Source: Candidatus Helarchaeota archaeon
GTDB lineage: Archaea; Asgardarchaeota; Lokiarchaeia; Helarchaeales; RDOG01
Length of the DNA stretch: 14,043 nt
Assembly (NCBI GenBank): GCA_029838215.1
Contig: JALGVI010000074.1
Coordinates: 1-14,043, forward strand
Direction of reading: 5' to 3'
The notes below the pieces were generated by a model that ran no database searches, was not told the DNA's origin, and saw only the letters and a list, made by a program, of their open reading frames with translations. The translations under genes and the position numbers were made by a program. Each line of letters starts with the position of its first letter. Position 1 is the stretch's first letter. Shown in pieces: positions 170 to 13,727 of the stretch.

Positions 170-478
170 TTAAAAGTCAGTTACGTTTAAACCTTTTCTC
201 TTATGAATGATGTAAGAATCGGCATTTGGACCTTTAATCACGCGTAATTTATCTCTCAAGTCGAATTTATGCAAGAATTTTTTAAGATACGTTTTTAGAG
301 CTCGTTTATTCAAATCCATTCGAGCGATTTCGATGGTTACTTTCTTGCCAGAATGAGAAACTTTCCCTTCAGGACCGACTATCTTTTCTAAATACGTTGA
401 AAGTTCGTTTATGAGATTGTCGTTGACCCATCCAAGATGTTGACACTCAATTTCATATTGTCTTGGTTCCGAACTCAT
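170..478 (-). CDS. rpl22e: Ribosomal protein eL22 (L22e), eukaryote-type
   Basis: 102 aa. YEIECQHL matches eL22 FxxDCxHP, LNKRALKTYLKKFLHKFDLRDKLRVI matches SKRYLKYLTKKYLKKxxLRDWLRVV, and DSYII matches xSYEL (from memory). SD-like GGTGTG upstream. Confidence 0.85.
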   Translation of the reverse strand: MSSEPRQYEIECQHLGWVNDNLINELSTYLEKIVGPEGKVSHSGKKVTIEIARMDLNKRALKTYLKKFLHKFDLRDKLRVIKGPNADSYIIHKRKGLNVTDF

Positions 479-2862: not shown

Positions 2863-3996
2863 ATGGAATTTAGCATCTCAATTGACGAAACACACGACAA
2901 CTTGATTAGCTTCTATAGCTGTTCGCTTTTAGTCAAGATGCTGACTGATTTGGGTTTTATTCCGTATGAATTAGTAATAGGACCGATTTCGATTTCGAAC
3001 ATTGAAGATGTTGACGTGTTATTTATCGGAGCTCCAACAAGACCTCTTTCAAATCAGGAAGTTGAGCATGTTGCGAAATTCTTGGCACTAAAAAACAAAT
3101 TCGTCGTCTTGACTTCAAGTGCCTCGAGCCTTATTGGATCGAATCTGAACATTCTCACCGGTCCATTTGGCATTGCGATTAATAATGATTTAGTACATGT
3201 TTCCAAAAATATCGAGGGTCAATTCTTTCCGGTAATAAAAAATATCAATAAGCATACCATTACAAGAGGTGTTGGACAAATCTTGTATTCGGGTGCCAGT
3301 TTGGATGTGTGGGGAGATGATGCAAGAGTTTTGGCATCTACAGGTAAAAAAGTAATACCTAGTAACGTGCCAATAATTGCGCTTGCGTGTTCGGGGAGAC
3401 TACTCGTTCTTGGCGGGCACACGTTATTTTTGGATGAACCGAAAATAGGATTGGCTCAAAAGAATAATTTAAAATTTGTCCGTAACTTTTTTACGTACGT
3501 GAAGCGGCGAATCAAGGGAAAAATAAAAGAAAAACCGATGAAAAGTTCGGTCACGACAGAGTTCTTACAGGATCTTGTAGAAGACGTCCATCCTTCACGT
3601 CGCATTAAGTTTAAAGATGCGAAGAAAATGATAGAAAAAGATGCCAAGAGTTTTATCAAAGTTCTTGCAGACGTGGAGAAGGAGTCGGACATATTTTGGT
3701 CAAGAGTTGCGGATCAAATACACGATTCAACGTCCTTGGAGAGTTTGGAGCGTTGTCGTCAAGAGATGAAAAGGAATTATGGGAATTTACGGTCAAAGAT
3801 CGAAAACGGTCGGAATTCTGTTTTTAGTCTTCTATATGAACTGGATGGTCAAACGACAAGGGACTTACAAGTCGAGTTAAGAGACATTATAGATCAGGTC
3901 TATGTGGCGGAAGGAGAAACAGCAACAAAACTGGATACGATTAGAAATAATTTGGTCCAATTATACAATGGAAAAAAAGCCACGTTGGGAAAATAA
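2863..3996 (+). CDS. GIFT (GldG/IFT52-like) domain protein with C-terminal alpha-helical domain; paralogue B
   Basis: 377 aa. ISIDETHDN, DVDVLFIGAPTRPLSNQEVEHV, SNLNILTGPFGIAINND, LYSGASL, VLASTGKKVIPSNVPIIA and GRLLVLGGHTLFLD...NNLKFV. Aligns with paralogue A over both the GIFT and C-terminal domains. Confidence 0.8.
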   Translation: MEFSISIDETHDNLISFYSCSLLVKMLTDLGFIPYELVIGPISISNIEDVDVLFIGAPTRPLSNQEVEHVAKFLALKNKFVVLTSSASSLIGSNLNILTGPFGIAINNDLVHVSKNIEGQFFPVIKNINKHTITRGVGQILYSGASLDVWGDDARVLASTGKKVIPSNVPIIALACSGRLLVLGGHTLFLDEPKIGLAQKNNLKFVRNFFTYVKRRIKGKIKEKPMKSSVTTEFLQDLVEDVHPSRRIKFKDAKKMIEKDAKSFIKVLADVEKESDIFWSRVADQIHDSTSLESLERCRQEMKRNYGNLRSKIENGRNSVFSLLYELDGQTTRDLQVELRDIIDQVYVAEGETATKLDTIRNNLVQLYNGKKATLGK

Positions 3997-4013
3997 AAAA
4001 AAGGAAGGTTTTT
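3995..4013. terminator. Compact bidirectional archaeal oligo-T terminator between convergent genes
   Basis: A8 at 3995-4002 (T8 on the minus strand) and T5 at 4009-4013, in and around the 15-bp gap between the two stop codons. Confidence 0.5.
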
Positions 4014-5946
4014 ATTCAACAAGACCCGGGAAGTAATATCGAATTCCAGTAGATGCTTTTTCATCTTTGATTGCCACGCGAGTTTCTTCCATATAGTCAA
4101 GAACCCGTTGAGCTCGTTCTGTAGTGAAGTTCAACCGAAGAGTTACTTCTTCAACATTCGTCCAATTTTTTTCGGCCCCGAAATTTTTCAAGTAATTCAG
4201 GATTGCATTAGAATCGTTGATGAATTGGTCTTCTGAAACGATATCCGCAACACCGTCTAATTTATCTTTAAATATGTTGAAAAACCGATCTGCGATGTTT
4301 AAATTATTAGAGCGAACCTCGAGTTTTGCTTCTCCAGTCTGATTCGCAACGTGCCCTGTAATCTTTACTCCAACGCTAAAATGAAGATTCTTTTTTTTGT
4401 CTAAATAAGCATATATTATTTCAGAGAAGTATACTTCGTTTTCCGTGTTGATGCGTTCTTTAATTTTAGTGAATGCGACTTCGTTTTCGATTATGGCTTT
4501 CATGTTTTTCAAGAAATTATCTGGATTTCCGATAAATTTTATGGGTTCTTCAACTGCTTGTTGGAACTTGGCTGCCTTGATCTGCTCTTCAATGGTTTCG
4601 GGTAATGTTTCTACGTGTGTGATTTCGTCTTTTTCTTCTTTTTGAGTAATTCGTTGAAGAGTTTCTTTAGGATTGATACCAATTTCTTCGAGGAATTCAT
4701 TGACGGTTTCATCTACGGGATTCAATAGGGGAGGAATCTTGAGTACTGTTTCCATTTGTTGGTATTCTCTTTGTAATAAGTCTTGTGCTTTTTTGAATCC
4801 TTTTTTAACTTGACTTAGCGTAAAGCCCTTGCTCATCACTTCATAAAGAGTTGGTATTCCTTTTTTAGACTGAGTCATGTTGATGATGATCCTGCTGACT
4901 TTATCAATTTTTTTAGCTTCTCTCGGTCCAATCCTTTCCTCATTCAGAGGTCTGTTAATGTACGTCCACGCCATTTTTAAAAGCCGGATATTCAGCTTCA
5001 AGTCATAAAAGACATCTGTTAAATAGAAGTTAGCTTCCTTTCCATTCCGCTGTTTCTTTGTAACATATGCCAAGATCCTTTTGCTTGCGTCCTCAAGTTT
5101 TCGAAACTCGCTTGGACTCAGAGAGTCAAAATTTACGCTAACAGGACCAAATAAATAATCGAGCACGTTAGTTTCAAAATTAAGGGGACATTTGATTATA
5201 TTGCTGACCATGTCAATCCTACTAGGCAGGTGTCCTTCTGTTTTAAAGAATCGCAAGACGCGACGTGCGATTTGTTCTTTCAGATTTAGATCTTCCAATT
5301 TTATTCTTTCGGTTAGCGATCTATTAACGGGAAATCGCCTTCTGGCAATGTTCTCTTTTACATATGAATATGTTTTATTTGCAGCGATGAGGTATTGAAG
5401 AAAATCCACGTCATTTCTCTTGTATGAAATCTCGATTTTATTTTCTCGTCCGAATCCGATTAATTCGAATTTGTGTATTTTTAAATCTTCACGATTGATA
5501 CCAAAGAAAATTTGACCAGGAAGGAACCTTCTACGTTGATATCCTCGAGGTAAGCGCAACGCAGTTGCATCTCGAAGATTATTAGTCTTCACCAGTTTTG
5601 GGATACGGATACCATTGAATTTATTGAGACAGCTTTCTACAAATTCGTTAAACGTGAATAGATATATTGTTTCATTTTCTTGAAAAAATCCTTTAAGAGC
5701 CGAATGAACGAAAATATTATCAGCTTCACCGATTTTCACTGGTAATGATAATGGTGAGACCCAGATATTTATAATCGAATTTTCACCCAGTAACAATCCA
5801 TAGGGATTTCTCAAGGATTTAAAACCAAGATCATTAAAAATTGGTTGATAAATTGCGATATCCATTGGTGTTGCCAAACGGCAATTATGTTCTTCCTGCT
5901 CTTTTTCGGATAAAAATCTAATTTTTAATGGGATAATTGGTCGCAT
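4012..5946 (-). CDS. Multidomain protein: Cdc48/p97-N-like domain (aa ~5-175), three HTH-like repeats (~215-390), adaptin-appendage platform-like domain (~468-563), C-terminal EAP30/Vps22/Vps36-like winged helix (~575-642)
   Basis: 644-aa ORF with AGGAGA SD at 5960-5955. The C-terminus NDSNAILNY...TNVEEVTLRLNFTTERAQRVLDYMEETRVAIKD...RYYFPGL resembles SNF8/Vps22 (DHTVVLQL...TVSEIKASLKWETERARQVLEHL...HYWLPAL, from memory). The other domain calls are weaker pattern matches. No Walker A motif. The ORF is confident; the domain labels are moderate. Confidence 0.6.
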   Translation of the reverse strand: MRPIIPLKIRFLSEKEQEEHNCRLATPMDIAIYQPIFNDLGFKSLRNPYGLLLGENSIINIWVSPLSLPVKIGEADNIFVHSALKGFFQENETIYLFTFNEFVESCLNKFNGIRIPKLVKTNNLRDATALRLPRGYQRRRFLPGQIFFGINREDLKIHKFELIGFGRENKIEISYKRNDVDFLQYLIAANKTYSYVKENIARRRFPVNRSLTERIKLEDLNLKEQIARRVLRFFKTEGHLPSRIDMVSNIIKCPLNFETNVLDYLFGPVSVNFDSLSPSEFRKLEDASKRILAYVTKKQRNGKEANFYLTDVFYDLKLNIRLLKMAWTYINRPLNEERIGPREAKKIDKVSRIIINMTQSKKGIPTLYEVMSKGFTLSQVKKGFKKAQDLLQREYQQMETVLKIPPLLNPVDETVNEFLEEIGINPKETLQRITQKEEKDEITHVETLPETIEEQIKAAKFQQAVEEPIKFIGNPDNFLKNMKAIIENEVAFTKIKERINTENEVYFSEIIYAYLDKKKNLHFSVGVKITGHVANQTGEAKLEVRSNNLNIADRFFNIFKDKLDGVADIVSEDQFINDSNAILNYLKNFGAEKNWTNVEEVTLRLNFTTERAQRVLDYMEETRVAIKDEKASTGIRYYFPGLVE

Positions 5947-6496
5947 TAATCTTATCTCCTAAATTTAATGATTTTAAATTCTTTGAAATGTTTTTTTATT
6001 GGCATTGATAATCATCTAAGAAATTATAGGTTATTAATCAAATATAAATTTAATTCTTTTTGCAAGGAATTTAATATTGCTAAATTTTATTTAATATTTT
6101 AAAAAAATTCCTATTACCATAGATATCATGATTTAAATAGTCTATTTATGAAGTCATTTTAAAGTTAATCTTTATTTTTTACTCAATTAAGATAATAATT
6201 TGCTATATATGATAAAATTATGATAGAATTGACGAATATTCTCTCCATTTGTAATTATCTTATCAATTTTCCAAAATTTTTTATTCGGAAAAATACAGAT
6301 AGATCTCCACCATATCTTGACTTTTTAAATAATATCTAAACTATTTAATTGGTATGGAAAATCAAAAATCAATCTATGGATGGAAAAATGATAAACAAAA
6401 GAAAAACTATTCATATTTTTGATTATCGGGTTTGTAATATTTCTTTATTTGTAGAAATTCGTTTTTTTAAAATTTGTTTGTAAATGTTTTTTTTTT
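5947..6496. other. Long, very AT-rich intergenic region
   Basis: Hand count of 107 G+C in positions 5941-6480 (~20% GC), far below the flanking genes. No ORF of 60 aa or more lies within it. Confidence 0.8.
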
Positions 6497-7651
6497 TCAT
6501 TCGATAATTTTTTCTAATACATTTACAACTTGGTCAATTTGTTTTCGTGAGATGACTAAAGGAGGCAACATTCGAATGGTATTTAACCCGGAAGTTAAAA
6601 GCAAGACACCTTCCGATATAGCACGTTTCAAAATGGGAACGACTTTAAATTTCATTTCAATTGCAATGAAAAGTCCTTTTCCTCGGATTTCTCGAATGGT
6701 TTTTTTTCCTTTTAAATGACTTCTTAGTTGTTCAAGTAAGTATGCGCCATTTTCAGCAGACTTTTCGACCAATTTTTCATTTTGAATGACATCAATAGAT
6801 GCGAGCGCCGCTGCACAGGAGAGTGGATTTCCTCCAAAAGTCGAGAAATGTTCTCCAGTCTTTAACGAATCAAAGATTTCATTTTTTGCAATCATGGCAC
6901 CCATTGGTATACCTCCAGCAATGGCTTTTGACAAGGTCATGATATCAGGAATGACGTCCCAATGCCCGTGCCCTGCAAAAAGTTTCCCTGTCCGACCCCA
7001 ACCTGTTTGCACTTCATCAAATATCAATAGAACATCGTGAGCATTACAAATTTCCCGCAATTCCTTGAGGTATGTGTTTGAAGGGATAATGACACCGGCT
7101 TCACCTTGAATTGGTTCGACAATAACTGCAGCCGTTTGCTTCGTGATTGCATTCGTTACGGCTTCAACATTTCCAAAGGGAACGTGAGAAATGCCGGGTA
7201 TTAGTGGTTGAAAGGGCTTCCGGTATTTTGGATTCCAAGTTACGGAAAGAGCTCCCATTGTTCGTCCGTGGAATCCATTTTTCATGGCTATAATTTCGAT
7301 CTTGCCCGTATGTCGTCGGGCTAATTTTAATGCGGCTTCGACGGCTTCTGCACCGGAATTTCCAAGAAATGATTTTGTGAGTCCAGGAGGAGTTACTTCA
7401 GCCAAGCGTTTATATAATTGTCCACGCACTTCATTGTAAAGAATCGTGGGACATACGATGAGTTTTTCGGCTTGATTTTTGATTGCCTGAACGATTTTTG
7501 GATGGGAATGCCCCGTGATGGCGACACCATTACCACCAATGCAGTCAATATACTCCTTGCCTTCTGCATCGTACACGAGAGCTCCTTTTCCAGAAACGAT
7601 TTGGATTGGCCTGCGACCGACCCAGCCGCTGTATTGATTTTCTAATTCCAT
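6497..7651 (-). CDS. lysJ: [LysW]-aminoadipate/glutamate semialdehyde transaminase (LysJ/ArgD, PLP class III)
   Basis: GKEYIDCIGGNGV, NSGAEAVEAALKLAR, FHGRT, EPIQGEAG, DEVQTGWGRTG, LSKAIAGG (PLP Lys) and STFGGNPL. Directly downstream of lysY. ATG 7651 is preferred because GGTGT lies just upstream; TTG 7669 is an alternative start. Confidence 0.85.
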   Translation of the reverse strand: MELENQYSGWVGRRPIQIVSGKGALVYDAEGKEYIDCIGGNGVAITGHSHPKIVQAIKNQAEKLIVCPTILYNEVRGQLYKRLAEVTPPGLTKSFLGNSGAEAVEAALKLARRHTGKIEIIAMKNGFHGRTMGALSVTWNPKYRKPFQPLIPGISHVPFGNVEAVTNAITKQTAAVIVEPIQGEAGVIIPSNTYLKELREICNAHDVLLIFDEVQTGWGRTGKLFAGHGHWDVIPDIMTLSKAIAGGIPMGAMIAKNEIFDSLKTGEHFSTFGGNPLSCAAALASIDVIQNEKLVEKSAENGAYLLEQLRSHLKGKKTIREIRGKGLFIAIEMKFKVVPILKRAISEGVLLLTSGLNTIRMLPPLVISRKQIDQVVNVLEKIIE

Positions 7652-7696
7652 TATAAACACCGATTTCAAATGAGAGATAGAAATTGGACGGATTTT

Positions 7697-8752
7697 TTAT
7701 ATGGGATGCAAGGCAGGATACCAAAGTCCTTTAGTTTCGTCTAAGCCAGTCATCAAGTTAAAGCATTGAATTGCAGATCCTGCAGCGCCTTTTACTAGGT
7801 TATCCAATGCACCGAAGGTCACGATCCGGTTCATTTCGGGGTCGATATCGAATCCAACATCGCAGAAATTGGAACCAATGAGCATTTTTGGGTCAGGTCT
7901 CCTATAGAGTCCCGATTTCTGCTTAATTATTCGAACAAACGGATGATCTTTATAGAATTTCCGATATAATCGCCACAAGTCCTTTTCGGTAAGGTCTTTA
8001 ATGGGAAAAACGTGTGAGGTCGAGAGAATTCCCCTGACAATATTAACGCCGTGAGCAGAAAAACCCACTTTAATAGGTTTATTTGAAATCAAGTTTAATT
8101 CTTGAACGATTTCTGCCAAGTGCCGATGACCAACAGGGCGATATGGACGGATCACGTTAGTTCTTTCGGGATGATGAGTGGCAATGTTGAAGGATTTACC
8201 ACCACCTGACGAGCCAATTTTGGCATCACTGATCACGTGAGATGGATCTACGAGGTCTGGTTCAGAAAATAGTGGTGCCAATGCCAGAATCGTGGCGCAT
8301 GCCATACAGCCAGGCGCGGCAACAAGCCGTGCCTTTTTAATTTCTTCCCTGTGAAGTTCGGGCAAGCCATAAACGGCTTCTTTCGTAATTTCCGGACAAG
8401 AATGAGTCCCATAATGTTTCTCGAACTCGTTCATATCTTTCAAGCGAAAATCAGCACTTAAATCGACAATTTTTAGACCAATTTCGAGCAGATCCGGGAC
8501 AATGGCTTGAGATGCCTTGTGCGGCACGGCCAAAAAAATGAAATCACACGAACCGATCTTATCCATGTTAAAACTCGTGAATTTAACGTCCAATAATTTC
8601 TTGAGGTTTGGATGTATTTGACCAACGGGTTGGTCGACATAAGTCCTAGACGTGATCATGTGAATTTCAATATCCGGGTGGATGTATAGGAGCCGGAGGA
8701 GTTCACCTCCAGTATATCCTGATGCACCAATAACAGCGATCTTCATTGACAT
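7697..8752 (-). CDS. lysY: [LysW]-aminoadipyl/glutamyl-phosphate reductase (LysY, ArgC family)
   Basis: GASGYTGGELLRLL, DLSADFRL, YGLPEL, catalytic PGC and DNLVKGAAG. LysY-type features are HPER, GHRHxAE, VRGIL, F(V/I)RIIKQKxGxYRxPDP and a C-terminal LHP. The start may be ATG 8746. Confidence 0.88.
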   Translation of the reverse strand: MSMKIAVIGASGYTGGELLRLLYIHPDIEIHMITSRTYVDQPVGQIHPNLKKLLDVKFTSFNMDKIGSCDFIFLAVPHKASQAIVPDLLEIGLKIVDLSADFRLKDMNEFEKHYGTHSCPEITKEAVYGLPELHREEIKKARLVAAPGCMACATILALAPLFSEPDLVDPSHVISDAKIGSSGGGKSFNIATHHPERTNVIRPYRPVGHRHLAEIVQELNLISNKPIKVGFSAHGVNIVRGILSTSHVFPIKDLTEKDLWRLYRKFYKDHPFVRIIKQKSGLYRRPDPKMLIGSNFCDVGFDIDPEMNRIVTFGALDNLVKGAAGSAIQCFNLMTGLDETKGLWYPALHPI

Positions 8753-8788
8753 TACCTGAAGAAAAATGAAATTTAGGTAAAATGATTT

Positions 8789-9070
8789 TTACCATGGAAA
8801 AGTGTTGCGAGCAGCGACCATGGTTGTCGTTTCTTCAAGAATTTCCTTGAACATTGCATCATTTCGCAAGTTGGTCACTACCTCATCGAGTTGATTTAAT
8901 TCATCGAAATTGATTTCGACAACGACGTCCCATGCACCAAATACCGGACAAGCGTAGGGAACGCGTTCGCGTGGAAATACTTTTTTCAATCTTTCCACGA
9001 CTTCCCATTCATCACCGACACTTGATAATCGCAGTAAAATATAGGCACGAAACTTTTTATCTCCAGCCAT
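8789..9070 (-). CDS. Lrp/AsnC ligand-binding (RAM) domain-only protein (demi-FFRP), no HTH
   Basis: 93 aa. RAYILL..., VVERLKK, VFGAWDVVVEI, LNQLDEVV and TTTMV fit the AsnC ligand-binding pattern (AxxVxGxYDxxxxV...xxTxTxx). An in-frame TGA two codons upstream excludes an N-terminal HTH. Confidence 0.85.
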   Translation of the reverse strand: MAGDKKFRAYILLRLSSVGDEWEVVERLKKVFPRERVPYACPVFGAWDVVVEINFDELNQLDEVVTNLRNDAMFKEILEETTTMVAARNTFPW

Positions 9071-9166
9071 GGTTCATACACCAATTTTTTTGAATACTTT
9101 CATGTTTCCTATTTTGCATTTTAAAGTTATGTTTTGGATGGGTCAAATCCGTGTCTCTTTGTTCAT

Positions 9167-10579
9167 TTAATTAGGTATCATCTTCAACACGGCATCAAAG
9201 GATTGGATGAAATCCTCGATGTCTTCAGGAGAATGTGCAAGTGTGGTAAATGCTGTAGCACCTCGCTTCGTAATTTTATGTTGGGACAGCATTGCAGTGG
9301 CAATTCTACCTACAGCTTGATTTCGTTGCAATGCCTGTTGAATGTTTCCAGGAATCCGTATGTCCATGTTGATTGCAGCATAAGTCTTGTATTGAACCAC
9401 GGATTTAAAGTTGTATGCAAAATATGGAACATCGTGTCTCTCGAAAAGATCGTTGAGCTTAGCCGTGAGGACGTTTCCTGTCTTGGCAGCCTTTTCAATG
9501 GCATTTTCTTTTTCGAGATATTTCATAGTCCAATATGTTGCTGCCGCAGTAAGTGGGTTTCCAAGGAGAGTCCCAGTTGCAATCACTCTTTCTTTTTGTG
9601 CCTCGATTCCACTTGCAATGTAAGTCATGATTTCTTCACGTCCACCCAGACCTCCAGCTGAGGGGTGTCCGTGAGTTAGAAGCTTGCCGAATGTCGTTAG
9701 ATCGGGTTTGATGCCAAAATATTTTTGAGCTCCACCCATATCCATTCGGAATCCAGTCACGACCTCATCAAAAATGAGTAAAACACCATATTTCTCACAG
9801 AGTTCTTGAACGCCTTTATTGAAGTCAGGAGCCACGGGAATATTTCCAGATTCGGGACCTAGCGGCTCAAGAATGACGGCGGCGATGCCTTTTTTCTTTT
9901 CGAATTGCTTGAATGTTTCTTCTAATTTTTTTAAGTCATTAGGAGGGACCGCAATGGTATCCTTAAAACAAGAGCTTGGGATTCCGTGTGACTCCATATC
10001 TCCAGAAAACGGGACGTGCATGTCATAGGTCAGTTGATCGGACCAACCGTGATATGCGCCTCCAATTTTGATGATCTTCTTCTTTTTTGTATAAACACGG
10101 GCGATTCGAATGGCTGCCATATCAGCTTCGGTTCCAGACTGATAGAATTTGAAAAGCTCGATAGAAGGAACGTGTTTTTTGATTTGTTTGATGGCTTTCA
10201 ATTCCCATTCGTTCGTATAATAAAGAGCGGGATCCACGTCCTGCAGGACTTCAATGATTTTTTCACGTAGAGGTGCATAATTATGACCGAGAATGACAGC
10301 ACCTGCACCACTGAGCCAATCAGTGTATTCATTTGAATCAACGTCCCACATTTTTGATCCTTGTGCACGAGTCATTGTCAGTGGAAAGGGGTCATTGATA
10401 ACCATTTGATGCTCGTATCCGCCAGGGATACAGGTCTTCATCTCGTCATAGAGGTCCTTGGACTTTGGGCATTTTTTTTCGATTTCCTTACGAATTTTTA
10501 CCATTGTTTCGTCAGGAATCATCCGAATTGGATTCTCAGTAATTTGTTTAATCCGTTTTTGAATTTCTTCGAATTCCAT
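9167..10579 (-). CDS. PLP class III aminotransferase, HemL/GSA-aminomutase-like subfamily but probably not true HemL
   Basis: 470 aa. AQGSKMWDVDSNEYTD, SGTEADMAAIRIAR, GAYHGWSD, ILEP, LIFDEVVTGFR, DLTTFGK and GTLLGNPL. Has PGGYEHQ in place of the HemL PGGVNSPVR motif and a ~35-aa N-terminal extension. SD GAGGT at 10591-10587. Confidence 0.85.
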   Translation of the reverse strand: MEFEEIQKRIKQITENPIRMIPDETMVKIRKEIEKKCPKSKDLYDEMKTCIPGGYEHQMVINDPFPLTMTRAQGSKMWDVDSNEYTDWLSGAGAVILGHNYAPLREKIIEVLQDVDPALYYTNEWELKAIKQIKKHVPSIELFKFYQSGTEADMAAIRIARVYTKKKKIIKIGGAYHGWSDQLTYDMHVPFSGDMESHGIPSSCFKDTIAVPPNDLKKLEETFKQFEKKKGIAAVILEPLGPESGNIPVAPDFNKGVQELCEKYGVLLIFDEVVTGFRMDMGGAQKYFGIKPDLTTFGKLLTHGHPSAGGLGGREEIMTYIASGIEAQKERVIATGTLLGNPLTAAATYWTMKYLEKENAIEKAAKTGNVLTAKLNDLFERHDVPYFAYNFKSVVQYKTYAAINMDIRIPGNIQQALQRNQAVGRIATAMLSQHKITKRGATAFTTLAHSPEDIEDFIQSFDAVLKMIPN

Positions 10580-10631
10580 CCATAAAACCTCAAAAATATA
10601 TTAGATAACTTCATTTTTATTAGTAAAGCAA

Positions 10632-10823
10632 TTAATCGGCCCATAATTTCAATTCTCGCTGGCATCGGGGGCAAGTTCCATGCCTCTTGATCCACGCATT
10701 AAGTTCTGTTCTATGGAAGGCCGTGTGACAATATGCGCATCGTCCTAGATCTTCTTCTTGAATAGGTCTGCGGCAGATATGACATGTTTCATTTGGTTCT
10801 GTCAAGAGCCTCGCCTCACTCAC
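10632..10823 (-). CDS. Stand-alone RING-type zinc finger protein (63 aa)
   Basis: C14-x2-C17-x11-C29-x2-C32-x4-H37-x2-E40-x3-W44-x6-C51-P-x-C54. The GTG start overlaps the upstream ACT gene end by 8 bp. Confidence 0.8.
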   Translation of the reverse strand: MSEARLLTEPNETCHICRRPIQEEDLGRCAYCHTAFHRTELNAWIKRHGTCPRCQRELKLWAD

Positions 10824-11514
10824 TTGAAAGAAGAGAGCGAAAGAGCAGGATTTGATCTTCTAGAATCTGGTATGCTTGACGACCGAGTTTTCTGTCAATG
10901 ACAAATATTGTATCGGTGTGGCAAGAAAGAAATTCTGTAATGTTGATGTTGCTCTGGGCGAACAGGTTCGTTACATAAGCAACGATTCCAGGAGCGTCAG
11001 CGATCGTATCGGGGCATTTAAGGATTAGTGCTGATTGCTCACGTTTCACTTTGAGAATATTTCGCTTGTTTAGAAGTTTTATCAAGCGCTGTTCGTGATC
11101 AGCATCGGCAATTATTGAGAAAAACGTCGTGCCCTGGATGAGTTGGAAAAAGTCGGTATCATTCATTAGTTTCGTGAGTTCGATATTCGGATCGAGTAGG
11201 GCAATTTGTCGAATTGTAAGAACCATTAAGTCATTTTTCAATTCGAGCTTGCTTTGTCCGAGGATTCCTGCGAGTTGTTTTTCGAGTATGATCCATTTTT
11301 CCGTGAGTTCTTTAGAGTGTCGCATCAATGCCATTTTTATTGCTTCTACATTGATTTTTTTATTCCGTTGCACGAGTGTTTGAACCTCTCTTTTCAATCG
11401 TTCAGCAAGAGCAGAAAAATTGATTACTTCTTGCTTCATTGCATCGATAAGAGATGGTCGTGTTTGAATTACACGTCGAGTTGCTTCGGCAATCGTTAGC
11501 TCTTCATCCGCCAT
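10816..11514 (-). CDS. Archaeal amino-acid-sensing regulator-like protein: N-terminal helical/HTH-like domain plus tandem ACT domains (aspartate-kinase/CASTOR-type ACT)
   Basis: 232 aa. N-terminus TIAEATRRVIQTRPSL...INFSALAE...VEAIKMALMRH. C-terminal PGIVAYVTNLFAQSNINITEFLSCHTDTIFVI matches the ACT_7 pattern. SD AGGAG at 11530-11526. Confidence 0.8.
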   Translation of the reverse strand: MADEELTIAEATRRVIQTRPSLIDAMKQEVINFSALAERLKREVQTLVQRNKKINVEAIKMALMRHSKELTEKWIILEKQLAGILGQSKLELKNDLMVLTIRQIALLDPNIELTKLMNDTDFFQLIQGTTFFSIIADADHEQRLIKLLNKRNILKVKREQSALILKCPDTIADAPGIVAYVTNLFAQSNINITEFLSCHTDTIFVIDRKLGRQAYQILEDQILLFRSLLSSE

Positions 11515-11997: not shown

Positions 11998-12152
11998 AAT
12001 TAATTTGTCCTGAATAAACTAAAAATATTTTCTTATCTTGTTAAAGAAAAGGATTTTTGTGAATTTTCCGAACATGGAAAGTAACGATTCCTTGAATCAT
12101 GGTTAAATATTTAGGTAAGATCTCTAGTGTAAAAACAAATCGAGTAAAGGAA

Positions 12153-13727
12153 ATGATGACGATTTCACGAAGCATTGCAGTATCGAAGAATGAATTATCA
12201 ATACTTAAAGCACTCCAGAAGTTAGGAGGAAAAGCCACACCTGAAGATATTGCCAGACAAGCGAAATTGGAAAGAAATCAGGTTATTTCAAGTAGATCGT
12301 GGCTGGTAACGAAGAATCTCATTTCAGTAGAGGAAGAGAGGAAAACTGAGTATACATTGACAAAGGATGGCATGGTATTCGCCGATAAATCATTACCAGA
12401 ACGACAGCTCATCGAATCTCTGAGCAAGGTCAAAGTGGAATCGTTAAAAAACCTGAAAAGCAAGGTCAAACCGGAGCAATTCTTCAATATTGGGATAAAA
12501 TGGGCAAAGACGAATAAATGGATTGAATTCACGAAACTCAAAGATGAAAAGGCAATAAAGTTAAATGCAAAAGGACTGAGTGCTTTAAAAACTCCTTCTC
12601 TTAGCGATCAAATATTGAAATCCATAGCAAAGGCTCCGAACTCGATGATGACACTTGAGGATTTAAAGCAGGCTCACGCTAACTTGTCCGATGAATTATT
12701 AGCTCAACTCCTCAAGCGGAAATTGATTGAATCTAAGGAACGAATAAAGATTACTTTTGTTTTAAATTCAAAAATAAAATTAGAAGACTTGATCACGGAT
12801 CAAATTACAAGACTTAGCAGGGACGACATAAGTTCAGGGGCGTGGAAGACTCGCGCGATCAAGCCCTATGACGTGGCGATCAGGGCACCCATTTTATATC
12901 CTGGACGAAAGCATCCATATTTAGAAATTCTTGATGAGGTTCGTGAGATCTTAATTGGAATGGGATTTCAAGAGGAAAAGGGACCTCTGGTAGAGTGTGA
13001 ATTTTGGGATTTCGATGCCTTATTTCAAGCCCAAGATCATCCTGCCCGAGAGATTCATGACACTTACAAGTTAAAATTTCCGCAAGATGCGAATCTCAAG
13101 ATTGATCAGTATAAAAAGAACGTGATGAAAACACACCTTAATGGATGGAAGACGGGTTCACAAGGATGGGGCGTGTTTGATGAGACGTTTGCAACTTCCC
13201 GCCGTCTTATTCTTCGTAGTCAGACAACTGCTGTTTCAGTTAGAACGATCAACAAGTACCGAGACCCTCCAATTCGGATGTTTTGCATAGACAAAGTATT
13301 TCGCCCAGACGTCCTTGATGCCAAGCATGCCTTAGAGTTTCACCAAGTTGAAGGAATAGTCCTCGACGAGGGACTGACTCTTAGAAACCTTTTTGGCGTG
13401 CTTTCACAATTCGCACGTGAACTGGGATTTAAAGAGGTTAAATTCAAGCCAGGATACTTTCCATTCACGGAACCCAGCGTGGAAGCCTTTGTCAAGCACG
13501 AAAAATTGGGGTGGATTGAAATTTTAGGGTCGGGATTATTTCGACCTGAGGTTCTCATTCCCTTCGGAATTGACTATCCTCGCGTGCAATGTCTTGCTTG
13601 GGGGATTGGAATTGGTCGTTTGGCAATGATACGATTGGGATTAGATGATATTCGTGAACTTCACTCACAAAATCTCGAATATCTCCGCACTGCAGGAATG
13701 GTACGCAAGACACGAGCCAAATCCTAA
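12153..13727 (+). CDS. pheS: Phenylalanyl-tRNA synthetase alpha subunit, archaeal/eukaryotic type with N-terminal winged-helix extension
   Basis: GRKHP, WDFDALFQAQDHPAREIHDTY, LRSQTT, FRPDVLDAKHALEFHQVEG, YFPFTEPSVE, GWIEILGSGLFRPEVL and AWGIGIGRLAM. ATG 12153/12156 after AAGGA is preferred over ATG 12099, which abuts a TATA-like TTAAATA. Confidence 0.96.
   Translation: MMTISRSIAVSKNELSILKALQKLGGKATPEDIARQAKLERNQVISSRSWLVTKNLISVEEERKTEYTLTKDGMVFADKSLPERQLIESLSKVKVESLKNLKSKVKPEQFFNIGIKWAKTNKWIEFTKLKDEKAIKLNAKGLSALKTPSLSDQILKSIAKAPNSMMTLEDLKQAHANLSDELLAQLLKRKLIESKERIKITFVLNSKIKLEDLITDQITRLSRDDISSGAWKTRAIKPYDVAIRAPILYPGRKHPYLEILDEVREILIGMGFQEEKGPLVECEFWDFDALFQAQDHPAREIHDTYKLKFPQDANLKIDQYKKNVMKTHLNGWKTGSQGWGVFDETFATSRRLILRSQTTAVSVRTINKYRDPPIRMFCIDKVFRPDVLDAKHALEFHQVEGIVLDEGLTLRNLFGVLSQFARELGFKEVKFKPGYFPFTEPSVEAFVKHEKLGWIEILGSGLFRPEVLIPFGIDYPRVQCLAWGIGIGRLAMIRLGLDDIRELHSQNLEYLRTAGMVRKTRAKS

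Follow-up and report, generated by a model that had tools for sequence, protein, structure and literature searches.

We focus here on a gene of a Candidatus Helarchaeota archaeon that lies on the minus strand of contig JALGVI010000074.1 (assembly GCA_029838215.1), at positions 4012-5946 of the 14,043-nucleotide stretch that we analysed. This stretch, referred to below as the window, makes up one entire contig of an assembly of 3.6 Mb (94% complete). As read from the list of open reading frames and its translation, the gene encodes a protein of 644 residues plus stop, P0001, and our strongest result concerns its end. Profile and pairwise comparisons show that over its last ~70 residues P0001 is homologous to wH2, the C-terminal winged helix of Vps22. 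[quoted passage not shown] In front of this tail, structural models place a Cdc48-N-like head, a basic helical middle, an acidic linker and an alpha/beta domain with the fold of an adaptin platform. We propose that P0001 serves the ESCRT pathway of Asgard archaea as a soluble, modular adaptor that putatively docks on Vps25 by its tail, a reading to which we give about an even chance.

P0001 is a real gene, since its orthologues match it over the full length at 41-79% identity (11 aligned sequences, the later matches P0016 and P0017 being additional to these). They align from residue 1, in agreement with the assigned start, and a GGAG-type Shine-Dalgarno motif precedes the ATG. Database searches yield about a dozen orthologues, in every case from Asgard metagenome bins, and the gene is single copy in its own genome. 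The names of homologues, along with the adjacent L22e and IFT52-GIFT genes, point to a Helarchaeales archaeon as the source. The family is confined to one Helarchaeales family: residues 1-450 were found in two of the 400 Asgard species genomes searched, both belonging to that family, and among 61 class-level relatives the full-length protein was found only there. Pfam scans gave no family above threshold in P0001 or in any of the 11 aligned members.

AlphaFold models were obtained for the full-length protein (mean predicted local distance difference test score, pLDDT, of 70) and separately for residues 1-210 (pLDDT 88.3, predicted template modelling score 0.83), and domain borders were set from these two models together with alignment statistics. 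The alignments behind the models are shallow, because the family is small. The first-pass annotation, made from the sequence alone, had described a modular chain, and the models bear out this layout, with a beta-rich part (residues 1-205), a helical part (206-411), a charged linker (412-450), an alpha/beta domain (451-573) and a winged helix (574-644). Within the family alignment, mean identity is highest in the tail (58%), followed by the platform-like alpha/beta domain (53%), and is 30% in the linker. A Foldseek search with the whole model returned weak rows only (best E 3.4e-3), a shape search of the ESM Atlas reached query-normalised TM values of only 0.16-0.21, and ESM Atlas feature searches with the whole of P0001 and with residues 205-410 gave nothing usable.

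The winged helix at the end of P0001 (residues 574-644; 4015-4227, minus strand) follows a long helix that leads into it in the model and closes with the residues RYYFPGL; its assignment to the Vps22 type comes from phmmer, hhalign and BLASTP. A HMMER scan (phmmer) with P0001 that covered 1.8 billion representative proteins gave, beyond the orthologues and a 232-residue fragment (P0010), only two proteins, P0011 and P0012. The latter (215 residues) is EAP30/Vps22 by Pfam (E 1.9e-20) and matches residues 588-642 of P0001 with 38% identity at a library-wide E of 1e-4. BLASTP supports the homology of the tail with 36% identity over 67 residues (E 1e-13), and a profile of the family's tails aligns with the Vps22 proteins of related genomes at an hhalign probability of 99.0% (E 5.7e-18). 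This alignment spans only Vps22 columns 173-238, which correspond to wH2, and the ending R[YW]YFP[GS]L is common to the tail of P0001 and to Asgard Vps22. EAP30 is also the Pfam family that most members hit (six of the 11), in every case below threshold and with a best E of 0.01; PF04157 gives no match for P0001 itself and stays below its cut-off in all members. In a profile search of the PDB, SNF8 was the top hit, at an insignificant E of 0.57. The ESCRT-II-like module of the first-pass annotation is thus supported, as a sequence homologue of one defined part of Vps22.

The same specificity is seen in genome searches. When P0001 was compared with 10 related genomes, the sole matches were those of its tail to the C-terminal part of open frames of ~190-250 residues. 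Five of these Vps22-type frames were compared with the coordinates of Vps25, and all five directly adjoin it; in one genome (G002) the order is Vps4, Vps25, Vps22 and then a 293-residue gene taken as Vps28-like from sequence. Conversely, three different Vps22 queries against the own genome each gave the tail of P0001 as the best match. A canonical Vps22 of ~240 residues was not found in this genome (94% complete) with PF04157 and the three queries. Its ESCRT locus (L005, contig C112) encodes Vps4, a Vps25 of 297 residues (P0013) that bears a long coiled-coil N-terminal extension, a helical protein of 140 residues and a ubiquitin-like protein of 86 residues with GG near its C-terminus; Vps25 lacks an adjoining Vps22 gene here, unlike in related genomes. 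P0001 is not an orthologue of Vps22: its winged helix is single, the helical N-terminal region of the kind by which Vps22 and Vps36 pair is lacking (the middle of P0001 reaches only 7% hhalign probability against the Vps22 profile), and its gene lies outside the ESCRT loci. Because it has one winged helix rather than two, it is also not a full ESCRT-II subunit.

The tail is found on differing heads, and it therefore behaves like a portable docking module. First of all, P0011 (925 residues) has a multi-pass membrane N-terminus, a middle that weakly resembles that of P0001 (BLASTP E 2e-4), a beta-rich stretch, and then the platform and tail; the platform and tail of P0001 align with those of the P0011 group at an hhalign probability of 96.2% (E 2e-9) over 157 columns that run across both domains. 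The beta-rich stretch stands before the platform in P0011, as judged from sequence only, and phmmer with residues 590-860 of P0011 found one chance-level match only. Second, P0018 (688 residues) carries LVIVD propeller repeats and a winged-helix end that is 43% identical to the tail of P0001 over 54 residues. Third, a gene fragment resembling P0011 occurs in the own genome (L055/L056, contig C81:2069-2987, minus strand) and includes both the platform and the tail of Vps22 type; it lies near the contig end, and a TGA or a change of frame separates its two matching pieces. Finally, a 768-residue relative of P0011 in the own genome (L054:73-2379, plus strand, contig C84) is 47% identical to it in the beta-rich and platform region and consists of a soluble N-terminal domain and many membrane spans, with a terminal zinc ribbon in place of the winged helix of P0011. 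This gene lies directly downstream of a pair formed by a Vps22-like and an SPFH gene, described below.

The pattern of a shared tail on a membrane protein (P0011), a propeller protein (P0018) and the fragment on C81 is that expected of a shared docking module, and what is known of Vps22 suggests the partner. [quoted passage not shown] Similar behaviour of Asgard Vps22, Vps25 and ESCRT-IIIB has been seen both in vitro and by two-hybrid assay (PMC9192718). The tail of P0001 would thus dock the protein on Vps25, which is encoded beside Vps4 and the ubiquitin-like gene, and this contact would link it to ESCRT-III, while the head and the basic helical middle would select cargo bearing a ubiquitin-like tag, a cofactor or a membrane site. 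Since P0001 is missing the first winged helix (wH1) of Vps22 as well as its helical dimerisation region, it may provide a one-armed alternative entry into ESCRT-II/III rather than act as a core ESCRT-II subunit. That the tail and the platform are the best-conserved parts of P0001 counts in favour of such a role, as do the Cdc48-N-type fold of the head and the published Asgard precedent of ESCRT-derived docking domains joined to appendage-like domains (PMC10936438). The first-pass annotation had suggested an adaptor that could link ubiquitin or AAA+ handling to the recruitment of ESCRT-III, a function that remains conjectural.

The tail might, on the other hand, contact a partner other than Vps25, such as an ESCRT-III subunit or one of two long Vps22-like proteins, in which case the role would still be an ESCRT role. 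Two-hybrid contacts between Vps20 and Vps22, and links from ESCRT-I/II to ESCRT-III that bypass Vps25, have been reported (PMC9192718), and the own genome indeed encodes two Vps22-like proteins, long and divergent, whose genes are each paired with an SPFH gene; these proteins are the next matches of the Vps22 queries after the tail of P0001. For the C-terminal winged helix of Vps22, however, no partner besides Vps25 is structurally defined (PMC10936438, PMC539351) and nothing favours another, so that we regard this alternative as improbable. The two paralogues, of 495 residues (L009:1489-2976, minus strand, contig C8) and 563 residues (L010:118-1809, plus strand, contig C84), both consist of a helix-turn-helix (HTH)-like N-terminal part, a long helical middle and a Vps22-like winged-helix end, and the shorter one matches a relative's Vps22 with an E of 2e-6 and EAP30 with an E of 0.0025. 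An SPFH/Band 7 gene comes after each of them (L009:724-1470, minus strand; L010:1813-2523, plus strand), and in a sister genome a mini-Vps22 of 176 residues also adjoins an SPFH gene (L041). Vps22-like and SPFH genes may thus form a conserved pair.

We now turn to the head of P0001 (residues 1-205), for which the evidence is structural. The model of residues 1-210 was searched with VIA-align against 48,161 PDB representatives, and its best rows are designed double-psi beta-barrels (Z 10.9, root-mean-square deviation (rmsd) 2.2 with 83 residues aligned, and Z 10.2), accompanied by N domains from the mycobacterial AAA ATPase MSMEG_0858 (Z 10.6), from CDC48A of Arabidopsis (Z 10.5, with 89 residues aligned at rmsd 2.1 A) and from PEX1 (Z 10.2), and by the double-psi barrel of VAT (Z 9.7). 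NSF/Sec18 N domains (Z 8.2-8.3) and Ufd1 (Z 7.5) come lower. The first lobe (residues 1-104; 5635-5946, minus strand) matches double-psi barrels at Z 10.1-10.9 and rmsd 2.1-2.8 A over 83-91 residues, and as modelled it is securely a double-psi beta-barrel, of Cdc48/p97-N type by VIA-align and Foldseek. The second lobe (residues 105-205; 5332-5634, minus strand) is a beta-barrel with a closing helix, with a net charge of +13, delimited with Foldseek and VIA-align; the VIA-align rows that fall on this lobe alone score Z 6.7 for aspartate decarboxylase and Z 7.1 for the barrel of a viral RNA polymerase. Foldseek aligns the head with p97 N domains at an E of 5.9e-4 and a probability of 0.99-1.0, and the alignment is colinear across both lobes over ~200 columns with an rmsd of ~11 A, which indicates that the angle between the lobes differs from that in p97 N. 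The VIA-align matches cover 83-98 residues of the head, and a Cdc48-type second lobe is a tentative assignment from the colinear Foldseek alignment. On these models the entire head has a Cdc48-N-like build, with less certainty as to what its second lobe is. At the sequence level, no Pfam match to CDC48_N or CDC48_2 was seen in the head even at an E of up to 10, and a PDB profile search with an alignment of the N domain matched nothing. The Cdc48-N-like module of the first-pass annotation is thus upheld as a two-lobed domain with a double-psi barrel whose best natural matches are the N domains of Cdc48/p97, PEX1 and VAT. Folds of the Cdc48/p97-N type serve AAA+ ATPases and Ufd1 in binding adaptors and ubiquitin-like folds.

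The alpha/beta domain (residues 451-573; 4228-4596, minus strand) has, in the model, the TBP-like/helix-grip fold that is also the fold of the appendage platform of adaptins, as assigned with VIA-align. Nearly all VIA-align rows obtained with the whole model fall on residues 457-573. The gamma-COP appendage platform matches these residues with Z 8.8 (rmsd 2.9, 94 aligned), and AP-4 beta (Z 8.8), AP-2 beta (Z 8.6), alpha-adaptin (Z 8.1) and KA1 (Z 8.0) are also found. The adaptin match is without specificity, because SRPBCC/START-like proteins, which are the top matches (Rv2186c, Z 10.4; At1g24000, Z 9.9), and the phosphoglucomutase C-domain (Z 9.2) score higher (9.2-10.4 versus 8.1-8.8). Furthermore, the immunoglobulin (Ig)-like beta-sandwich of an appendage is absent before the platform in the full-length model, its place being taken by the disordered linker of residues 412-450. 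The adaptin-appendage module proposed in the first-pass annotation therefore has weak support: the platform fold is present (Z 8.1-8.8), with START/Bet v1-like and phosphoglucomutase domains matching it as well or better, and the Ig-like half is lacking.

Between head and platform lie the helical middle (residues 206-411; 4714-5331, minus strand), with a net charge of +14 and a pLDDT of 70-90 in the full-length model, and the disordered acidic linker (residues 412-450; 4597-4713, minus strand), with a pLDDT of 29-38. The linker is 41% charged with a net charge of -8 and varies in length in the alignment. We considered the middle as three HTH-like repeats related to winged helices and found this idea unsupported, with hhalign probabilities of 0.3-23%; no significant internal repeat was found in it by hhalign. 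Pfam hints in the middle were sub-threshold only (PMBR and Sigma70_r3).

These features raise the question of whether P0001 is instead a nucleic-acid-binding or transcription-related protein whose likeness to Vps22 reflects only shared winged-helix ancestry; DNA or RNA would then be bound by its winged helix, its middle with HTH-like segments, its TBP-like domain and its barrels. The second lobe (+13) and the middle (+14) are net basic, enzymes that act on nucleic acids include ones with TBP-like and double-psi barrel folds (barrels of RNA polymerases match the head at Z 6.7-9.0), sub-threshold Pfam hints to Sigma70_r3, DnaD_N, the GTF3C1 extended winged helix and PMBR occur among the members, and the original isolation of ESCRT-II was as a complex associated with transcription (PMC539351). 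In the head search, however, RNA polymerase and molybdoenzyme barrels (Z 6.7-9.0) rank below the Cdc48-type matches, so that the N domains of Cdc48, PEX1 and VAT outrank the polymerase barrels. The tail is specific to the wH2 of Vps22 (99%, E 5.7e-18) and picks out only Vps22-type genes in related genomes, whereas in none of the comparisons over the 11 members do winged-helix families of transcription factors outscore EAP30. The relatives that share the tail are, moreover, membrane-anchored or propeller-bearing, unlike transcription factors. We thus consider a nucleic-acid role unlikely.

The neighbourhood of the gene bears on another alternative. No ESCRT gene was found in the 14-kb window. 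Convergent with P0001 are two adjoining IFT52-GIFT-domain genes (1522-2829 and 2863-3996, both plus strand), encoding 435 and 377 residues with PF23355 matches of E 6e-12 and 6e-9; in three related contigs Roadblock/LC7, TPR and one GIFT gene stand where the window has two GIFT genes. Next to these is a gene for the eukaryote-type ribosomal protein L22e beside an open reading frame of 282 residues without Pfam match (window 170-478 and 546-1394, both minus strand), and the related contigs also have an unannotated gene of 242-256 residues beside L22e. On the other side, a spacer of 550 bp with ~26% G+C (5947-6496) separates P0001 from an aminotransferase gene; Rfam and tRNA scans of the window, this spacer included, gave no match. 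The aminotransferase gene belongs to a block of arginine/lysine-biosynthesis type (6497-11514, minus strand), which comprises a class-III aminotransferase, a semialdehyde dehydrogenase resembling N-acetyl-gamma-glutamyl-phosphate reductase, a conserved open reading frame of 93 residues without family assignment, another class-III aminotransferase and a protein with an ACT domain, and which is followed by PheRS alpha at 12099-13727 (plus strand).

It is thus conceivable that P0001 works with the neighbouring GIFT, Roadblock and TPR genes in a GTPase or trafficking regulatory module, loosely like DEPDC5/Iml1 of GATOR1, and that its tail serves that complex. The order of aminotransferase, P0001 gene, convergent Roadblock, TPR, IFT52-GIFT and L22e recurs in the three related contigs, the N domains of DEPDC5/Iml1 are among the matches of the head (Z 7.7-8.4), and KICSTOR chains appear among the weak whole-model Foldseek rows. 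The neighbours are convergent, on the other hand, and therefore do not form one operon with P0001, and each of these contigs belongs to a close relative, where a common gene order may be mere inheritance. The DEPDC5-type matches score under the Cdc48-type ones, no other DEPDC5 domains were seen, though no search was aimed at them, and a module of this kind would leave unexplained why a Vps22-type tail is common to unrelated heads. We therefore judge a shared module with these neighbours to have a small probability. A reading of P0001 as DEPDC5/GATOR1-like was itself ranked low, with the head matches (Z 7.7-8.4) below those of the Cdc48 type.

Several points also weigh against our proposal of an ESCRT adaptor. 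First of all, P0001 lies outside the ESCRT locus, among GIFT, arginine/lysine-biosynthesis and PheRS genes, with Vps25 on another contig. Second, the strongly basic second lobe (+13) and middle (+14) would also fit nucleic-acid binding. Third, Cdc48-N-type and TBP-like folds are widespread and tied to no fixed function. Fourth, homology to the Vps22 wH2 is no proof of a kept Vps25 contact, because winged helices are versatile. Finally, the acidic residue of yeast Vps22 that forms a salt bridge to Arg83 of Vps25 (PMC539351) could not be mapped in P0001. Co-folding of Vps25 (residues 120-297) with the tail (residues 565-644) gave a score of 0.01, which we count neither for nor against binding. 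A further-reaching version of the proposal is that Helarchaeales own a set of interchangeable cargo or site adaptors with differing heads (a Cdc48-N-type barrel, a multi-pass membrane domain or an LVIVD propeller) and a common Vps22-type tail that plugs directly into Vps25 and ESCRT-III. Within this set P0001 would represent the soluble type and its Cdc48/Ufd1-like head would read a ubiquitin-like tag, so that one chain would cover the work divided among ESCRT-0, ESCRT-I and ESCRT-II in eukaryotes. We put this forward tentatively and, as a whole, regard it as doubtful.

Some comparisons with known systems are instructive. Like Vps22 (PF04157; ~240 residues in its Asgard form), P0001 ends in wH2 with the R[YW]YFP[GS]L ending over its last 70 residues; it differs in having a TBP-like domain at the place of wH1, in being nearly three times longer and in being encoded outside the Vps4/Vps25/Vps28 locus. 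Like the N domains of Cdc48/p97/VAT, PEX1 and NSF and the UT3 domain of Ufd1, its head is two-lobed, with a double-psi barrel as first lobe, whereas no AAA+ ATPase follows it, no sequence-level match exists and the lobes are oriented differently from those of Cdc48/p97 N. A head of VAT-N type is, for comparison, known on a haloarchaeal Vps4-like ATPase (PMC10936438). Makarova et al. 2024 (PMC10936438) list many lineage-specific fusions of Asgard archaea in which adaptin-appendage, longin, TPR or HTH/PCI domains are joined to the Vps28 C-terminal domain or the steadiness box, ESCRT-derived domains that serve for docking. P0001 likewise couples a small docking domain of ESCRT origin to appendage-like and further interaction domains and has a patchy, lineage-specific spread, while its docking domain is the Vps22 wH2 and its head a Cdc48-N-type barrel. 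The euryarchaeal ESCRT-locus families arCOG09748 (a Vps22-C-like winged helix) and arCOG08177 (TBP-fold DUF3568) (PMC10936438) similarly tie TBP-like and Vps22-C-like winged-helix folds to archaeal ESCRT, a likeness that compares the described folds only; they are separate proteins in Vps4/ESCRT-III loci, whereas in P0001 the two folds are fused and outside an ESCRT locus. The first-pass annotation knew of no eukaryotic protein with such an architecture and cautioned that related fusions might be listed in Asgard ESCRT surveys. The architecture of P0001 was not found described in PMC10936438, in its text-form supplements (two of them in part) or in the other Asgard literature searched, and related Asgard ESCRT-docking fusions have been published (PMC10936438).

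Asgard archaea offer the clearest view now available of how the ubiquitin-ESCRT pathway of eukaryotes came together from its components. In eukaryotes, the Cdc48/Ufd1-type domain handles ubiquitin and AAA+ cofactors. The analysis presented here indicates that the winged helix by which Vps22 holds Vps25 has been used as a portable tail on unrelated proteins, one of which has a predicted head of the Cdc48/Ufd1 type. If the tail docks on Vps25, P0001 and its relatives would provide a testable example of cargo recognition wired to ESCRT-III before the layered ESCRT-0/I/II system, as well as a small natural set of constructs with which the targets of the Asgard ESCRT machinery could be mapped.

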